A stretch of 64,000 bases of DNA from Deltaproteobacteria bacterium (GCA_029261855.1 JAJDAN010000021.1:193923-257922), one strand, 5' to 3'. Shown: positions 30,096-36,483, counted from the first letter of the stretch. Notes: generated by a model not told the origin, from the letters alone. Numbers and translations are program-made.

Positions 30096-30890
30096 TCAAG
30101 AGCGCTTGCGCAGCTTCCAGACCTGCTCGCTCGGGTAGTCGTGCGCCCAGTCGGCGTCCACGAAGAAGCGCACCTCGGACCCGCGAGCGGGCGAACGCAG
30201 CTCGTGGTAGGCGACGACGTCGAAGCCGGTGCGGTCGAACAGCGACAGCCATTCGGAGATCGGAAGGTTGAATTCCGTGCCGGTGCTGCCGTCGGGTTCG
30301 CGCCAGTCCATCCGGTGCATTCCGAAGTAGGGATTTCGCAGGGTGTGGTCCACGGGTGCGTCGGAATCGAGCGCCTGGCTCAGCATTGCGAAGGGATGAT
30401 TGCCGAGGAACACGAGCTGTCCGCCCGGCGCCAGCAGACGCCAGGCTTCCGGGATCCACACGAAGGGGTCCGCCCAGATCGCGGCGCCGTACTCGGAGAT
30501 CGCGAAGTCGAAGGACGCGTCCGGGCGCGGGACCCGTTCGGCGTTGCCATGGAGGAGCTCGAGGTCGACGCCGTGTTCCCCTGCGAGACGACGGGCCGTG
30601 GCGAGCTGGCCTTCCGAGTTGTCGATGCCGAGCACCGTCGCGCCCCGGCGGATCATCCACGACGACACGTAGCCCGTGCCACAGCCCAGCTCGATGGCGC
30701 GCATGCCGTTCATGTCTTCGGGCAGCATTCCCAGCTCGGTCTCCGGGATGTGCCAGATGCCCCACTCGGGATCGCCCCGCCAGGAGCGTTCGCCGGCCGC
30801 CACCCAGTCCGCCGCCTGGGCGTCCCAGAGCGCGCGGTTCTTCAGGACGTAGTCGGGCGGGACGGCGACACCTTCCGCGTCACCGGCCAC
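30096..30890 (-). CDS. Class I SAM-dependent methyltransferase
   Basis: Motif I is AIELGCGTGYVSSWMIRRG and motif II is VLGIDNSEGQL. GTG 30890 was chosen as the start. The track start at 30956 would overlap the upstream gene by 77 nt. Confidence 0.8.
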   Translation of the reverse strand: MAGDAEGVAVPPDYVLKNRALWDAQAADWVAAGERSWRGDPEWGIWHIPETELGMLPEDMNGMRAIELGCGTGYVSSWMIRRGATVLGIDNSEGQLATARRLAGEHGVDLELLHGNAERVPRPDASFDFAISEYGAAIWADPFVWIPEAWRLLAPGGQLVFLGNHPFAMLSQALDSDAPVDHTLRNPYFGMHRMDWREPDGSTGTEFNLPISEWLSLFDRTGFDVVAYHELRSPARGSEVRFFVDADWAHDYPSEQVWKLRKRS

Positions 30891-32082
30891 CCAGCGCCTC
30901 GTCGATCTCGTCAGGCGTGAGGCCGACTTCCGCGAGCACCTCGCGCGAGTGCTCACCGAGCCCGGGCGCCGGCACGTCGCTCGTGAGGTCGGAGCCCGAC
31001 ATGCGCAACGGCGCGGCCACCGAACGGAAGCTCCCCGCAGTCGGGTGATTCACCTCGACGAAGGCGCCCGCTTCCTCTGCCGCGGGCTCGGCGACGGCCT
31101 CCTGCAGGGTGAGCACCGGAGCCCAGATCAGGCGGTGGTCGGCGAAGACCTTTCGCCATTCGTCGAGGCTGCGCTCGCCGATGCGTTCGGCCAGGCGCGC
31201 TGTCAACTCCTCGGACCCGCGGTAGCGCTCGACCGGGCCGCTGAATCGCTCGTCGGCCGCGAGATCCTCGAGGCCCAGCGCCTTGCAGAGCGTCGGCCAG
31301 TAGCGGTCCGATTCGATCATCACGAGGAAGATCCAGCGGCCGTCCCGTGTCTGGTAGTGGTTCCACAGGGGGTTCCGCGGTCGACTGCGGTCGTGCCGCG
31401 GAGGCGCCTCGCCCGTGGCCAGGGCCTGGGCGGCATCGTTGCCCTGGATGTAGAGGCCCACGTGGAGCAGGTTGACGTCCACGACCTGTCCGGCCCCTGT
31501 CTTGTCTCGCACGCGCAAAGCGGCCAGCACGCCGGTCACGACGGACAGCGCGAGCGCGTGATCGCCGACGCCACCGCGCAGAAAGGAAGGCGGCACGCCT
31601 TCGTCGCGCATCTGGTCCATGAAGCCCGCACGCGCCCAGTACGCGGTGTAGTCGAAGGCCGGCTCGTCGGCATTCGCGCCGTCGGGCCCGTAGCCACTGA
31701 CGCGCGCGCAGATGAGCTCAGGACGGTCTGCACGCAGGGTGGCCGGGTCGAGGCCGTACTTCACGAGACGTCCGGGCAACATGTTCGTGATCACGATGTC
31801 CGCCTGCGCGATCAGACGCGTGAGCGCGCGACGCGCGGGCGCTCGCGTCACGTCGAGGGTCAGGGACCGTTTGCCGCGGTTGTCCATCTGGAAGTGCGCC
31901 GCCTCGGGGAACGGGTGGCGGATGCCGTTCGTCCGGGGCGTCGAATGCCGATAGATCTCGCCGTGGGGCACCTCGACCTTCACGACGTCGGCGCCGAGGT
32001 CGCGCAGCAGCGCTCCCGCGGCCGGCGCCGCCACGTAGCTCGCGATCTCGACGACGCGGATCCCCTCGAGCGGTGCGGTCAT
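30880..32082 (-). CDS. Family III CoA-transferase (CaiB/BaiF)
   Basis: PLEGIRVVEIASYVAAPAAGALLRDLGADVVKVE is the typical N-terminus. 400 aa. Confidence 0.9.
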   Translation of the reverse strand: MTAPLEGIRVVEIASYVAAPAAGALLRDLGADVVKVEVPHGEIYRHSTPRTNGIRHPFPEAAHFQMDNRGKRSLTLDVTRAPARRALTRLIAQADIVITNMLPGRLVKYGLDPATLRADRPELICARVSGYGPDGANADEPAFDYTAYWARAGFMDQMRDEGVPPSFLRGGVGDHALALSVVTGVLAALRVRDKTGAGQVVDVNLLHVGLYIQGNDAAQALATGEAPPRHDRSRPRNPLWNHYQTRDGRWIFLVMIESDRYWPTLCKALGLEDLAADERFSGPVERYRGSEELTARLAERIGERSLDEWRKVFADHRLIWAPVLTLQEAVAEPAAEEAGAFVEVNHPTAGSFRSVAAPLRMSGSDLTSDVPAPGLGEHSREVLAEVGLTPDEIDEALGGR

Positions 32083-32157
32083 GTGCGCGGACTCCTTGCG
32101 AAGGAGCCCGCGACCGTAGGCGATGCCAGGGGGTCTCGCGAGCTTCCAGGACGGGCC

Positions 32158-33498
32158 TCAGCGATAGCGATTGATGCGGTTCTCGAGCGCTTCCTGACGA
32201 CCGGACACGGGCTTCGGGTCGAGCTTGCGGTCCAGGGCCAGGTCCGCGAGCGCCGCCAGGTCGGTATCGCCGGCCAGGATGGATCGCCCCAGATCACCGC
32301 CCCAAGCCGCGTAGCGCTGCTCGACATGCTCGGCGATCGCGCCGTCCTCGATCATGGCCGCGGCGACCAGCAGCCCCCGCGCCAGGATGTCGACGCCTCC
32401 GACGTGCGCGTGGAACAGATCCACGGGTTCCACGGACTGACGCCGCAGCTTGGCGTCGAAGTTGAAGCCTCCGCTGCCGAGTCCGCCCGCTTGCAGCAGC
32501 GCGTACCAGGCGAGACTCACTTCCTCGAGGGAATTCGGAAACTGATCGGTGTCCCAGCCGAGCTGCGGATCGCCGCGATTGATGTCCAGGCTACCGAGGA
32601 GGCCGTGCGCCGCCGCGTAGGCGATCTCGTGCTGGAAGCTGTGCCCGGCCAGGGTTGCGTGGTTGACCTCGATGTTGAGCCGGATCTCGTTCTCGAGCCC
32701 GTGCTCCTGCAGGAAGGCGTGGACCGCCGCGGCGTCGAAGTCGTACTGGTGCTTCGTCGGCTCCATCGGCTTGGGTTCGATCAGGATCGCGCCCTCGAAG
32801 CCGATCTTGTGCTTGTGCTCGACCACCAGGTTCATGAAGCGACCCAGCTGCCGGTTCTCGCGCGCGAGGTCCGTATTGAGCAGCGTGTCATAACCTTCGC
32901 GGCCCCCCCAGAGCACGTAGTTGGCGCCACCGAGCCGATGGGCTGCCTCGAGGGCGTCGCGCACCTGCAGCGCAGCGCAGGCGAACACGTCGGGATCCGG
33001 GTTGGTGGCGGCGCCCGCCGCATAGCGCGGGTGGCCGAACAGGTTGGCGGTGCTCCACAGCAGCCCGACACCGGTCCGGTCCATGGCGGCCTCTGCCCGG
33101 TCGAGCATGTGCGCCAGATTCTCGTGCCCTTCCGCGAGACTCGCGCCCTCGGGTGCCAGATCGCGGTCGTGGAAGGTGTAGAACGGCGCGCCAATCTTCG
33201 AGAAGAACTCGAAGGCCACCTCGAGCTTGCGTTCGGCCTGGGCCAGGGGATCGCCCGCGCCGTGCCACGGCCTGGCGAAGACCCCCTCGCCGAAGACGTC
33301 GTCGCCCGGCCAGCAGAAGCTGTGCCAGTAGCAGACCGCGAAGCGCAGGTGATCGCGCATGGACCGGCCCAGCACGATCCGGTCCGCGTCGTAGTAGCGG
33401 TACGCCAGGGGATCGTCCGTGTCGGGCCCGGCGAAGCGGACACTCTCGATCTCGGGGAAGAAGGGGTCGGTGGAGGAAGGCTCGAGGGTTCGGGTCAT
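32158..33498 (-). CDS. xylA: Xylose isomerase
   Basis: The start is the internal ATG 33498. [25 protein letters not shown]...[13 protein letters not shown]...FHDRD...[16 protein letters not shown]...[12 protein letters not shown] matches class II XylA throughout. Confidence 0.95.
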
Positions 33499-33551
33499 CC
33501 GGCGCTCTCCAGATTGGCGACGCGTTCCTGGACGCGTTCCTGGAAGGGGTC

Positions 33552-35045
33552 CTAGAAGTGTTGCTGAAGCGAATCGTACAGACGGGCGAATCGCTCGCGA
33601 CGCCGGGCGAGAGCGTCGCGCAAGCCCGGGTCGACCGCGATGACGTCCGCCAGCGGCGGCCGGACGCACACGGCTTCCGGTGACTCACCCGTTGCGGCGA
33701 GTCGCCCGAGCCGCGCGGCACCCAGGGCGGGACCGACCTCAGCCCCGGCGATGCGCTCGAGCGGACGATCCAGGGCGGCGGCGAGTACGCGCCCCCAGGC
33801 GTCGCTGCGCGCGCCTCCGCCGATGAAGGAGACGCGTTCGACGCTCGCGCCGGTGGAGAGCACCGCGTCCTGGCCTTCAGCCAGCGCGAAGGCGACCCCC
33901 TCGAGCACGGAAGCGACGAGCTCGCCCGGCCCGGTGTCGTGGGTCATCCCGAAGAAGACTCCCTTCGCATCGGGATCGTTGTGAGGCGTCCGCTCACCCG
34001 ACAGGTACGGCAAGAAGAGCGGAATCGCCTCGCTCCGTCCCGGGGACGAGCCCTCCGCGAGCACCGGCTCTGCGACGGCGAGGGCCTGTGCTTCGTCGGC
34101 TGCACCGATCAAGTGGGACACCCAGGTGAGGCAGCTGGCCGCGCTCAGGATCACCGACATCTGGTGCCAGCGTCCGGGCAGACAGTGACAGAAGGCATGC
34201 ACCGCCCGCGCGGGATTCGGTGCGAAGGCGTCCCCTGCCACGAAGTACACACCCGACGTCCCCAGCGCGAGAGACGCGCTGCCGGACGCGATGATTCCGG
34301 CGCCGGCGGCGCCCGCCGCCTGGTCGCCGGCGCCGCCGGCCACCACGACGTCCGCCCGCATGCCGAGCCGGCGGGCGAGATCTCCGCGCAGCGTTCCCGT
34401 CGCTTCGTTGCCCTCGTACAGGCGGGGCATCGACGCGAGACGCAGCCCGCAGGCGTCCACGACGTCCGGCGACCAGGCGCGCCGCGCGACATCGAGCCAC
34501 AAGGTGCCCGACGCGTCGGACATGTCGGACGCGTGGTCGCCGGTCAGCCGCAAGCGCAGATAGTCCTTCGGCAACAAGACGCGCTCGACCCGGGCCGCCA
34601 GCTCGGGTTCGTGCTGCTGCAGCCAGACCAGCTTCGGCGCGGTGAAACCCGGCATGACGAGATTCCCGGTCACCTCGCGGATCGTCGGCACCCGCCGTTC
34701 GAGTTCGCGACAGGCATCCGCGCTGCGGCCGTCGTTCCACAGGATGGCGGGCCGCAGCACGCGGTCCGACCTGTCGAGCAGGGTCGCGCCGTGCATCTGT
34801 CCGGAGAGTCCGATGCCGCGTACCGCCGCCAGCGCAGACGGCGCACGGGCCTGCAACCTCGCGGCAGCAAGCTCCGTCGCGGCCCACCAGTCCTCCGGAT
34901 CCTGCTCGGACCAGAGCGGGCGCGGTCGGCTCACCGAGAGCGGCGCCGTTTCCTGATCGACGATCGAGCCGTCTGTGGCCAGCAGCAACAGCTTCACGCC
35001 CGAGGTCCCGAGATCGATCCCGAGGAAGGTGTCGTCGGCTACCAC
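33552..35045 (-). CDS. xylB: Xylulokinase (FGGY family)
   Basis: [28 protein letters not shown] and GGGARS are the FGGY kinase motifs. It is adjacent to xylA. Confidence 0.9.
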
Positions 35046-35052
35046 CTCCGCA

Positions 35053-36240
35053 TTATCCCCTCGTCCGCGAACCCGGCAACACCTCGGCCAGTGCGTCGGA
35101 CAACAGCTCGAGCATCTGGTCGACCTCGCTGGCAGTGACTGTCAAGGCCGGCATCAGCCGGATCAAGTCGGGCCGCGGTGCGTTCACGAGACCGCCCCGT
35201 TCGAAGCACGCGCGGACGACGTCTCCGGAAGCCGGCGTCGCCAGCCGCAGGGCCAACAAGAAGCCCCGCCCCCGGATCCCGAGGCATCCATGCGTGCGCG
35301 AGATCCGATCGAGGCCCGCAGCGAGGCGCACGGCCACCTGCAGGCGCGCCGCGACGAACGCGGGATCCAGGAGTCGCTCGAGTACGGCGAGCCCGACGGC
35401 GGCCATCAGCGGGTTGCCCGCGTAGGTACCGCCCTGATCGCCCGGCTCGAAGCAGCAGACCGCCTCCTTCGCGAGCAACGCCGCGAGCGGAACGCCCCCG
35501 CCGATTCCCTTGCCGAGGGTCATGACATCCGGCTCGATTCCGTCGGCCTGATGGGCGAACAGCGGACCCGTTCGCCCCATCCCCGTCTGCACCTCGTCGA
35601 GCATCAGCAAGACTCCGCGCCGCGCGGTCAGATCGCGGAGGTCGCGCAAGTAGCCTTCGGCGGGGACGACGACGCCACCTTCGCCCTGGATCGGCTCGAC
35701 CAGGACCGCGGCCGTCTCATCGCCGATGGCCTTGGCGACGGCGCCGACATCGCCAAAGGGAACCTTGCGGAAGCCCGGCATCGCGGGCGGAAAGATCGCG
35801 TCCCACCCGGGCTTGCCCGTGGCTGCCATGGTGGCGAGGGTGCGGCCGTGGAAGCCGCCGTGTGTGGTCACGATTTCGAAGGCCCCGCCGCGCTGCCGCT
35901 GGCCCCACTTCCGCGCGAGCTTGATGGCGCCCTCGTTGGCTTCGGCACCGGTGCTCGTAAAGAAGGCCCGATCGAGGGAGCACTGGGCCGTCAGGGCCCG
36001 AGCCAGCTCGATCTGCGGGCGATTGTGGAAGGCCGGGCTCGGGGTCAGCAGCAAGCCGGACTGGGCGGCCAGCGCGTTCTGGATCTCCGGCGGTGCATGA
36101 CCGAGGGCGTTCACCGCCCAGCCCTGGACGAAGTCCAGATAGCGCCGACCGGCTTCGTCCCACAGCCAGGATCCCTCGCCGCGCACCATCACACCGGGCG
36201 GCCGTTCGGTAACGGTCATGAGCGCATCGGGCGGATTCAT
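35053..36240 (-). CDS. argD: Class III aminotransferase, acetylornithine aminotransferase (ArgD)-like
   Basis: ATG 36240 has SD AGGAG about 10 nt upstream (the track ORF extends to 36483). FVQGWAVNALGHAPP, STGAEANEGAIKLARK and DEVQTGMGRTGPLFAHQ...TLGKGIGGGVP (PLP Lys) are present. Substrate assignment within the family is by similarity only. Confidence 0.75.
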   Translation of the reverse strand: MNPPDALMTVTERPPGVMVRGEGSWLWDEAGRRYLDFVQGWAVNALGHAPPEIQNALAAQSGLLLTPSPAFHNRPQIELARALTAQCSLDRAFFTSTGAEANEGAIKLARKWGQRQRGGAFEIVTTHGGFHGRTLATMAATGKPGWDAIFPPAMPGFRKVPFGDVGAVAKAIGDETAAVLVEPIQGEGGVVVPAEGYLRDLRDLTARRGVLLMLDEVQTGMGRTGPLFAHQADGIEPDVMTLGKGIGGGVPLAALLAKEAVCCFEPGDQGGTYAGNPLMAAVGLAVLERLLDPAFVAARLQVAVRLAAGLDRISRTHGCLGIRGRGFLLALRLATPASGDVVRACFERGGLVNAPRPDLIRLMPALTVTASEVDQMLELLSDALAEVLPGSRTRG

Positions 36241-36298
36241 TTCGTGCATTCTCCTGTTCGCCCGCCCCGGCGAGGAGGCCGGTCCGCACGAACGCACG

Positions 36299-36325
36299 AA
36301 AAAGGCCGCCTCGAGAGGGGCGGCC
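36299..36325 (-). terminator. Intrinsic-terminator-like hairpin plus T5 inside the argD 5' region (attenuator or sRNA terminator candidate)
   Basis: The minus strand reads GGCCGCC-CCTCTCGA-GGCGGCC-TTTTT (7 G:C pairs, 8-nt loop, then five T). A T5 run after a GC stem is rare in this window. It lies about 60 nt upstream of the argD ATG, with no upstream minus-strand gene to terminate. Confidence 0.6.
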
Positions 36326-36373
36326 GGGTTCCGATCGGGTTGGGTTCGGGCTCCGAGAGAACCGGAGCTGGAA

Positions 36374-36445
36374 TCAGAGGACGGACCGCCGCCGCACATG
36401 AGCACGGCGACGACGCAAGCAGCTGGGAAGGAGTGCGGTCCGCAT
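36374..36445 (-). CDS. Speculative 23-codon Arg-rich leader mini-ORF
   Basis: ATG CGG ACC GCA CTC CTT CCC AGC TGC TTG CGT CGT CGC CGT GCT CAT GTG CGG CGG CGG TCC GTC CTC TGA translates to MRTALLPSCLRRRRAHVRRRSVL, with 8 of 23 codons Arg. It lies between the candidate promoter and the terminator. Arg-rich frames also arise by chance in GC-rich DNA. Confidence 0.2.
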   Translation of the reverse strand: MRTALLPSCLRRRRAHVRRRSVL

Positions 36446-36454
36446 GATCGCGCG

Positions 36455-36483
36455 ACTGTACGGACGCTCCCGCCCACGGTCAA
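36455..36483 (-). promoter_or_regulatory. Candidate sigma70-type promoter driving the argD leader
   Basis: The minus strand reads TTGACC (36483-36478), a 17-nt spacer, then TACAGT (36460-36455). Motif match only. Confidence 0.35.

Follow-up and report, generated by a model that had tools for sequence, protein, structure and literature searches.

A promoter, a mini-ORF and a terminator upstream of an argD paralog

The stretch of DNA analyzed here (the window) comprises 64,000 nucleotides (nt) from a Deltaproteobacteria bacterium (JAJDAN010000021.1:193923-257922; its genome is referred to as G000) and contains a gene for an ArgD-like aminotransferase preceded by a compact leader, which is the subject of this report. 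All coordinates are those of the whole window, and the leader elements lie on its minus strand (Table 1). A spacer of 263 nt separates the ATG of the argD-like gene (36240, -) from that of a divergent alpha/beta-hydrolase gene (36504, +). An earlier, sequence-only reading of the window had noticed in this spacer a promoter, an ATG about 10 nt past the -10 box opening an Arg-rich open reading frame (ORF), local hairpins, and a textbook terminator about 60 nt before the argD-like start, and had proposed an attenuator, with a riboswitch-like leader or a small RNA (sRNA) as equally open possibilities. The elements themselves were all found again. The promoter, TTGACC-17-TACAGT at 36483-36455, is one of only two promoter-like matches across 30-45 kb. 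The ATG of the mini-ORF, at 36445, lies 9 nt past the -10 box and opens a frame of 23 codons ended by TGA (36376-36374), in which eight codons specify Arg as described: one CGG, a run of four (CGT CGT CGC CGT), and a run of three (CGG CGG CGG). The local hairpin that had been singled out is in place, and the terminator has a stem of 7 bp, all GC, followed by T5, 64 nt upstream of the argD ATG. The leader as a whole is somewhat more stable than its shuffles (z = -2.25). Since the upstream neighbor is divergent, no minus-strand gene there needs a terminator, as the sequence-only reading had also remarked, and a terminator serving an upstream gene was thus ruled out.

Table 1. Features of the argD2 leader and gene (window coordinates)
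Feature	Position	Strand	Basis or remark
-35 box TTGACC	36478..36483	-	promoter scan; TTGACC-17-TAGNCT again in orthologs L166, L171, L172, L175, L199
-10 box TACAGT	36455..36460	-	promoter scan; TAGACT in most orthologs
Leader mini-ORF, 23 codons + TGA, MRTALLPSCLRRRRAHVRRRSVL	36374..36445	-	in-frame counterpart in 14/14 full-length leaders
Region 1, putative regulatory Arg run CGT CGT CGC CGT	36404..36415	-	sequence and conservation
Region 2, CGGCGGCGGTCCG	36382..36394	-	pairs with region 1 or terminator 5' arm
Middle hairpin GCTCCG-GTTCTCT-CGGAGC	36350..36368	-	folding
Terminator hairpin GGCCGCC-CCTCTCGA-GGCGGCC, -14.6 kcal/mol	36304..36325	-	scan and folding
Region 3, terminator 5' arm GGCCGCC	36325-36319	-	
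Region 4, terminator 3' arm GGCGGCC	36310-36304	-	
T5 tract, predicted 3' end of ~147-nt attenuated transcript	36299..36303	-	
Shine-Dalgarno AGGAGA of argD paralog	36250..36255	-	sequence
Putative regulated gene, ArgD-family class-III aminotransferase, paralog 'ArgD2'	35053..36240	-	Pfam PF00202 and NCBIfam profiles

Terminators of this quality are rare in the organism. A strict scan of both strands, for a perfect stem of 6 bp or longer with a GC content of 70% or more and T5 within 2 nt, returned only eight sites in the whole 6.96-Mb, 67.6% G+C genome, several of them at gene 3' ends. The statement that nothing comparable exists elsewhere in the window holds beyond it, the leader terminator being the only strict site on the 397-kb contig that contains the window. 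The motif GGCCGCC-N3-10-GGCGGCC occurs just eight times genome-wide, by which a repeat family was ruled out as the source of the hairpin. We also scanned the genome for the same logic, defined as a mini-ORF that starts with ATG and contains three or more CGH Arg codons, followed by a GC hairpin whose 5' arm is complementary to the ORF tail over at least 6 nt. This returned the present site and two implausible matches inside coding sequence. As a side observation, two of the eight strict terminators, near-identical and strong (CCCGCC-ACTN-GGCGGG-T5/6), lie at ~4879 and ~5522 of contig C23 (9.6 kb), which is visibly lower in G+C and may be phage or a binning contaminant.

The best NCBIfam model for the product of the downstream gene, ArgD2, is NF002985/PRK03715 'acetylornithine transaminase' (537.8 bits vs. 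a cut-off of 568), and it is likewise below the cut-offs of TIGR00707 (375.1 vs. 410) and NF002325 (370.1 vs. 372). Judged by PF00202 and its top matches, it is an ArgD-family member and a putative acetylornithine aminotransferase. The canonical ArgD is encoded on contig C16, 30 nt behind another gene (TIGR00707, 501 bits), and the gene in the window is therefore a second paralog. Hence, the label ArgD-like is right as to family, but this is not the sole ArgD of the genome.

Arginine biosynthesis is, by the textbook, controlled by ArgR repression, with T-boxes in some Firmicutes. The sequence-only reading had called Arg-codon attenuation unusual because ArgR is the norm, a remark that fits what we found in G000: no ArgR C-terminal domain (PF02863) was detected in this 98.6%-complete genome, with 8 of 14 control genomes positive, and ARG boxes were not searched for.

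Conservation of the mini-ORF and of its alternative pairings

We compared 14 full-length leaders preceding argD genes of 66-78% identity: the window's own, those of two species of the same Myxococcota genus (G001, locus L006; G003, locus L005), and 11 from metagenomes and Logan. A partial leader (L086), the one close relative returned by a metagenome protein scan and truncated, makes a 15th. All 14 have a -10 box, mostly TAGACT and often with TTGACC 17 nt upstream, and an ATG 8-10 nt later; the ORF that begins there has 23-46 codons and reads in frame through a run of 3-5 Arg codons. The run follows the pattern L/S/P-R-R-R-(R), mostly in CGU and CGC codons, and is uninterrupted in 13 of the 14, with L171 (R-H-R-R) as the exception. 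Twelve of the starts were picked by a frame-blind regular expression and two (L176 and L177) by eye. Between start and Arg run, neither sequence nor length is conserved, and at least 10 lengths between 8 and 27 codons occur; taking one leader as the reference, the chance of the frame being kept throughout is about (1/3)^9. Conservation of the mini-ORF and its Arg codons, a check that the sequence-only reading had called for, thus extends to start, frame, and run in 14 of 14 orthologous leaders. The leader also stays with argD2 where the other flanking genes differ (L176, L177, and L199). Since the ATG lies only 8-10 nt past the -10 box and no Shine-Dalgarno sequence precedes it in any of the 14 full-length leaders, the mini-ORF looks leaderless or nearly so.

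In 12 leaders, the run is made of 31 CGT, 12 CGC, 2 CGA, and 0 CGG codons, i.e., 69% CGT, whereas Arg codon usage in 1,549 long ORFs of the genome is 9% CGT, 53% CGC, 10% CGA, and 24.5% CGG. The sequence-only reading had cautioned that GC-rich DNA often yields Arg-rich frames by chance; this is answered here by the 69% against 9% and by a frame kept over at least 10 ORF lengths. Bacteria normally decode CGU, CGC, and CGA by a tRNA-Arg whose anticodon ACG is converted to ICG. In the whole G000 genome, ARAGORN found tRNA-Arg anticodons GCG, UCG, CCG, UCU, and CCU, and none with ACG. CGU and CGC would therefore both be read by a single tRNA-Arg(GCG), CGU by wobble only.

The Arg run (region 1) is followed by a G-rich segment (region 2), which reads GGGGCGG(U/C)CC in most leaders and CGGCGGCGGUCCG in G000. 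It had been suggested that a run in the spacer can pair with the GCCGCC arm of the terminator, and duplex computation bears this out: the CGGCGGCGG/GGCCGCC pairing is real in G000, with -17.7 kcal/mol for the 2:3 antiterminator and -22.8 kcal/mol for the 1:2 hairpin. Across leaders, the 1:2 duplex of region 2 with the Arg run ranges from -16 to -27 kcal/mol, and the 2:3 duplex, computed in 12 of them, from -15.8 to -25.4 kcal/mol. Random windows of the genome give -11 to -14.6 kcal/mol with the same 5' arms, and only 0.4-17% of them equal the real 2:3 duplex. Where the terminator stem differs, region 2 differs with it. L176 has the stem CGCCGCCCG/CGGGCGGGCG with a region 2 of GGGCGGCG, L177 has the stem GAGCCAUCCG/CGGAUGGCUC, again with matching region-2 changes, and region 2 of L171 is GGGGUGGCC, a further instance of compensatory variation. 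The alternative 1:2, 2:3, and 3:4 pairings are thus kept among orthologous leaders. These results come from per-sequence folding and duplex energies, which were used because MAFFT plus RNAalifold on 12 close leaders misaligned the hairpin arms and the consensus was therefore meaningless.

The order in which these pairings become available was modeled with a ribosome stalled at the final Arg codon, by folding the RNA that extends from the ribosome's 3' edge to the terminator loop, i.e., without the 3' arm. In this co-transcriptional minimum free energy (MFE) fold, region 2 pairs with the terminator 5' arm in all eight leaders tested. When the 3' arm is added, the antiterminator is still the MFE structure in three of the eight, and in the other leaders the two folds are 2-7 kcal/mol apart. 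The stop codon lies ~9-20 nt beyond region 2 across leaders; given this position, a terminating ribosome would mask region 2. The middle hairpin occupies the same position in relatives with a different sequence and is shortened in L168. In G001 (L006, 2815-2840), it consists of a 12-nt tandem duplication (CTGACGAATCAG twice), which is absent from the near-identical L168 (250-262). For these reasons, it is probably a spacer.

Among 68 species genomes of the family, the element is present only in the three of this genus, with otherwise chance-looking matches, and a close ArgD2 occurs in only 4 of 41 relatives. Upstream of homologs that are 52-63% identical, in Alpha-, Beta-, and Gammaproteobacteria, there are comparable mini-ORFs, often directly after a sigma-70 promoter (e.g., TTGACA-17-CAGAAT-6-ATG). 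They form peptide families such as 'LRRRRIPxxGRRLCVRRRS', 'FLALVRRRRPAPATGSRLCARRRRERC' (Hydrocarboniphaga effusa AP103), and 'MSKRxHNLVSRRRAFA', and canonical terminators follow. Mini-ORFs with RRR were found upstream of 37 of 152 loci, whereas the reverse complement gave 13 and shuffled sequences 3-11; an RRR mini-ORF together with a strict terminator was found in 18 loci vs. 0. The Arg runs of these 18 use CGC, CGA, and CGT plus three AGG codons, and no CGG. On a tree of 170 proteins (built from tblastn high-scoring segment pairs), the trait is clustered, with 21 changes vs. 44.5 for shuffled labels; it is present in all 10 proteins of at least 65% identity and missing from a large Rhodocyclales clade. 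The consensus fold of 10 beta-type leaders has the same 1:2 / 2:3 / 3:4 architecture, and its truncated version forms a GUCUGUG:CACAGAC antiterminator. Cultured carriers of the design include Hydrocarboniphaga effusa AP103 and Tistlia consotensis USBA 355. In the MFE folds of three beta-type leaders (L015, L141, and L159), the mini-ORF also pairs through its 3' part (CUGUGCGUGCG) with GCGCACACGCAGGAG beside the argD Shine-Dalgarno sequence, which, to judge from these folds, may be a second, translational layer of control.

A candidate arginine-codon attenuator and the alternatives to it

The conserved start, frame, and Arg run in 14 of 14 leaders, together with the kept 1:2, 2:3, and 3:4 pairings, argue for the first of the possibilities raised by the sequence-only reading, and we consider it probable that the leader is a ribosome-mediated, arginine-codon transcription attenuator of the trp/his type upstream of the argD paralog. 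From the sequence, we infer where transcription starts, that the mini-ORF is translated, that transcription can end at the T-tract, and that the leader responds to arginine, as follows. Transcription would begin with the ATG at 36445 or 1-3 nt upstream of it, and the mini-ORF would be translated without a Shine-Dalgarno sequence. When charged Arg-tRNA is plentiful, the ribosome would pass CGU CGU CGC CGU and reach UGA, covering region 2 (CGGCGGCGG...), which stops ~10 nt short of this codon; the GGCCGCC/GGCGGCC hairpin with its U5 would then form, and the polymerase would stop at ~36299, yielding a transcript of ~147 nt. When charged tRNA-Arg is limiting, the ribosome would stall on region 1 and leave region 2 free to pair with the terminator 5' arm once this is made; no terminator would form, and transcription would read through into the argD paralog and perhaps extend to xylB-xylA. 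If there is no translation at all, region 1 would pair with region 2 and the terminator would form.

Several observations weigh against this scheme. A run of at least four T follows the hairpin in 8 of the 15 leaders, two of which have it offset or interrupted. In the other 7, the tract is either weak (L166, L175, G003, and L174) or missing (L086, L176, and L177). The close leaders are related to each other and are not independent sequences, and a crude test of the 2:3 duplex on the whole proteobacterial set was not significant. The mini-ORF depends for its translation on leaderless initiation, and the CGG CGG CGG run of the G000 peptide is inside region 2, where stalling would favor termination. 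As to the putative target, ArgD2 stays below every curated cut-off for ArgD, the canonical ArgD is encoded at another site where no leader precedes it, and xylB and xylA, which follow argD2, are unrelated to arginine. Finally, the full leader, when folded at equilibrium, retains the terminator whichever stalled-ribosome mask is applied, the G000 antiterminator having -33.2 kcal/mol before the 3' arm exists and the terminator fold -35.0 kcal/mol afterwards. Therefore, the switch, if real, would be kinetic, as in classical attenuators, and what these folds support is only the kinetic priority of the antiterminator.

The alternatives have to account for the same features. It is unlikely, in our view, that the mini-ORF serves a different read-out, in which deacylated tRNA-Arg and the intrinsic terminator would not be the mechanism, and which would consist either of Rho-dependent termination or polarity on a C-rich untranslated stretch or of nascent-peptide arrest sensing arginine or ornithine. 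Models for such arrest are SpeFL and the fungal AAP. The T-tracts that are weak or absent although the hairpin is kept would suit this explanation, as would the stretch between stop codon and terminator in G000, which is C-rich and G-poor, and the semi-conserved residues past the Arg run (x-F-x-R-G-R). Salmonella speF orf34 does combine Arg codons with Rho and RNase G (PMC6386406). Yet the semi-conserved residues coincide with region 2 and are therefore explained by RNA pairing, a canonical hairpin with at least four T is found in G000 and seven further leaders (in two of which the T are offset or interrupted), and the three-way complementarity would have no role. Somewhat more improbable is a protein-independent structured leader, i.e., a riboswitch or protein-binding RNA in which the open frame is incidental. 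Its stability relative to shuffles and the conserved positions of its hairpins would be expected of such an RNA, but there is no conserved unpaired core able to hold a ligand, and start, frame, and Arg codons kept over at least 10 ORF lengths are needless in an untranslated RNA. Moreover, the Rfam/Infernal search that the sequence-only reading had advised returned no family: neither the window nor 20 related loci gave a gathering-score match to leader, T-box, or riboswitch families, and matches at permissive E-values were at chance level only.

That the promoter and terminator delimit a stand-alone, trans-acting sRNA of ~147 nt, with the argD paralog transcribed from elsewhere or by leaky read-through, strikes us as very improbable. 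Together they do make a complete short transcription unit, and the Rhizobiales sRNA Atu_C7 is weakly similar (RF02501; 15.7 bits, E = 0.18). This score is far under the gathering score of 45 bits, however, no second promoter-like site was found by the promoter scan between terminator and argD, and the element is always directly upstream of the same gene family, even where its neighbors have changed. Atu_C7 itself was rejected as a relative, with no match in the alphaproteobacterial loci; the match in the window, at 36299-36407 (-), shares CUCCGGUUCUC-CGG and the terminator and was treated as chance. The attenuated transcript could still moonlight as an sRNA. A chance juxtaposition without regulatory function, already disfavored, is barely tenable. 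GC-rich DNA does give many open Arg-rich frames, and RRR mini-ORFs persist in 13 of the 152 reverse-complement control regions, but 14 leaders share the complete arrangement, several classes of Proteobacteria have it again, and strict terminators number only eight in the genome. The comparative evidence thus favors the attenuator over the riboswitch-like leader and the sRNA that had been put on a par with it.

Relation to known systems and genomic context

To our knowledge, textbook cases of leader-peptide attenuation cover Trp, His, Leu, Thr, Phe, and Ile/Val but not Arg. A full-text literature search found no description of an arginine leader-peptide attenuator, and in a comparative study from 2005 the attenuators listed concern His, Thr, and Phe, with Arg represented by T-boxes (PMC1262725). 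The argD2 leader shares with trpL, hisL, leuL, thrL, pheL, and ilvL a promoter-adjacent short ORF with tandem codons, here for arginine as the amino acid of the putative pathway. As in the trpL/hisL type, regions 1-4 allow 1:2, 2:3, and 3:4 pairings that exclude one another, the first structural gene is preceded by an intrinsic terminator, and the stop codon is placed so that a terminating ribosome would mask region 2. The leader differs from this type in its predicted arginine specificity, which is absent from the 2005 survey (PMC1262725), and in a mini-ORF that is apparently leaderless, without a Shine-Dalgarno sequence and 8-10 nt past the -10 box. It also has no sequence or covariance-model relation to Rfam leader families, its putative target is a single argD paralog instead of a pathway operon, and its U-tract is degenerate in some orthologs.

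The closest parallels for the individual properties come from elsewhere. Mycobacterial polycysteine short ORFs are reported to be likewise leaderless 5' ORFs of a GC-rich host, which act as a cysteine-responsive attenuator and use consecutive codons of the amino acid made downstream as sensor (bioRxiv 10.1101/834739); they differ in having Cys instead of Arg and in belonging to another phylum. In Salmonella speF orf34, ribosome pausing at consecutive Arg codons reports low arginine and selects between alternative mRNA structures, but there are two Arg codons, a Shine-Dalgarno sequence is present, the leader is 516 nt long with the ORF at +32, the pausing is read out by Rho-dependent termination, sequestration of the ribosome-binding site, and RNase G decay, and the target is ornithine decarboxylase (PMC6386406). 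In the leaders described here, the Arg codons number 3-5, the terminator is intrinsic, and the putative target belongs to the ArgD family. ArgR with its ARG boxes and the Arg T-boxes respond to the signal proposed for the leader, arginine sufficiency (tRNA-Arg charging in the case of T-boxes, PMC1262725), in what would be the same pathway, whereas here no ArgR C-terminal domain and no Rfam T-box match were found, and sensing would occur via the translating ribosome.

Compared with known attenuators, the new properties would be arginine specificity, a leaderless start, and an argD paralog as target. Whether these leaders make up an undescribed class of arginine-specific attenuators is, in our judgment, evenly balanced. 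Such a class would combine a leaderless Arg-codon leader peptide with a terminator, accompany a single clade of argD paralogs throughout Myxococcota and Alpha-, Beta-, and Gammaproteobacteria, and take over arginine sensing via one tRNA-Arg where ArgR is missing. If true, arginine attenuation would be a widespread but overlooked mode of control. The locus and its relatives offer a sequence-defined, testable case in which arginine supply would be read by stalling on CGU/CGC codons without a detectable ArgR, and the presence of the design in cultured Proteobacteria makes it accessible at the bench. 'ArgD' paralogs behind such leaders can be flagged as candidates for induction by arginine starvation.

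There are also consequences for annotation, since the mini-ORFs are unannotated and argD starts are over-extended through the leader. The argD2 frame is open across the whole leader (35053-36483), giving a mechanical ORF of 476 aa from a TTG inside the -35 box, and public calls of orthologs are of 415-427 aa; gene callers therefore over-extend the N terminus across the terminator.

Downstream of argD2, xylB starts after 7 nt and is followed by xylA and a CoA-transferase gene. In the genus-wide synteny (window 30880-36240, -; L166, L170, L171, L174, and L199), one side consists of ApbE, a small ORF, RidA, and a hydrolase, and the divergent side of the leader, argD2, xylB, and then xylA2, an aldose epimerase, or a CoA-transferase. 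An ArgD-like aminotransferase beside a xylulokinase and a xylose isomerase is odd, and this gene context suggests that ArgD2 may have another substrate. At the junction itself, the argD2 stop TAA lies inside a -10-like GATAAT (TTGCCG-16-GATAAT, 35045-35079, -), with the GTG of xylB 7 nt further on. This arrangement could reflect translational coupling; alternatively, xylB could have a leaderless mRNA made from an internal promoter, which, if true, would uncouple xylBA from the putative attenuator.

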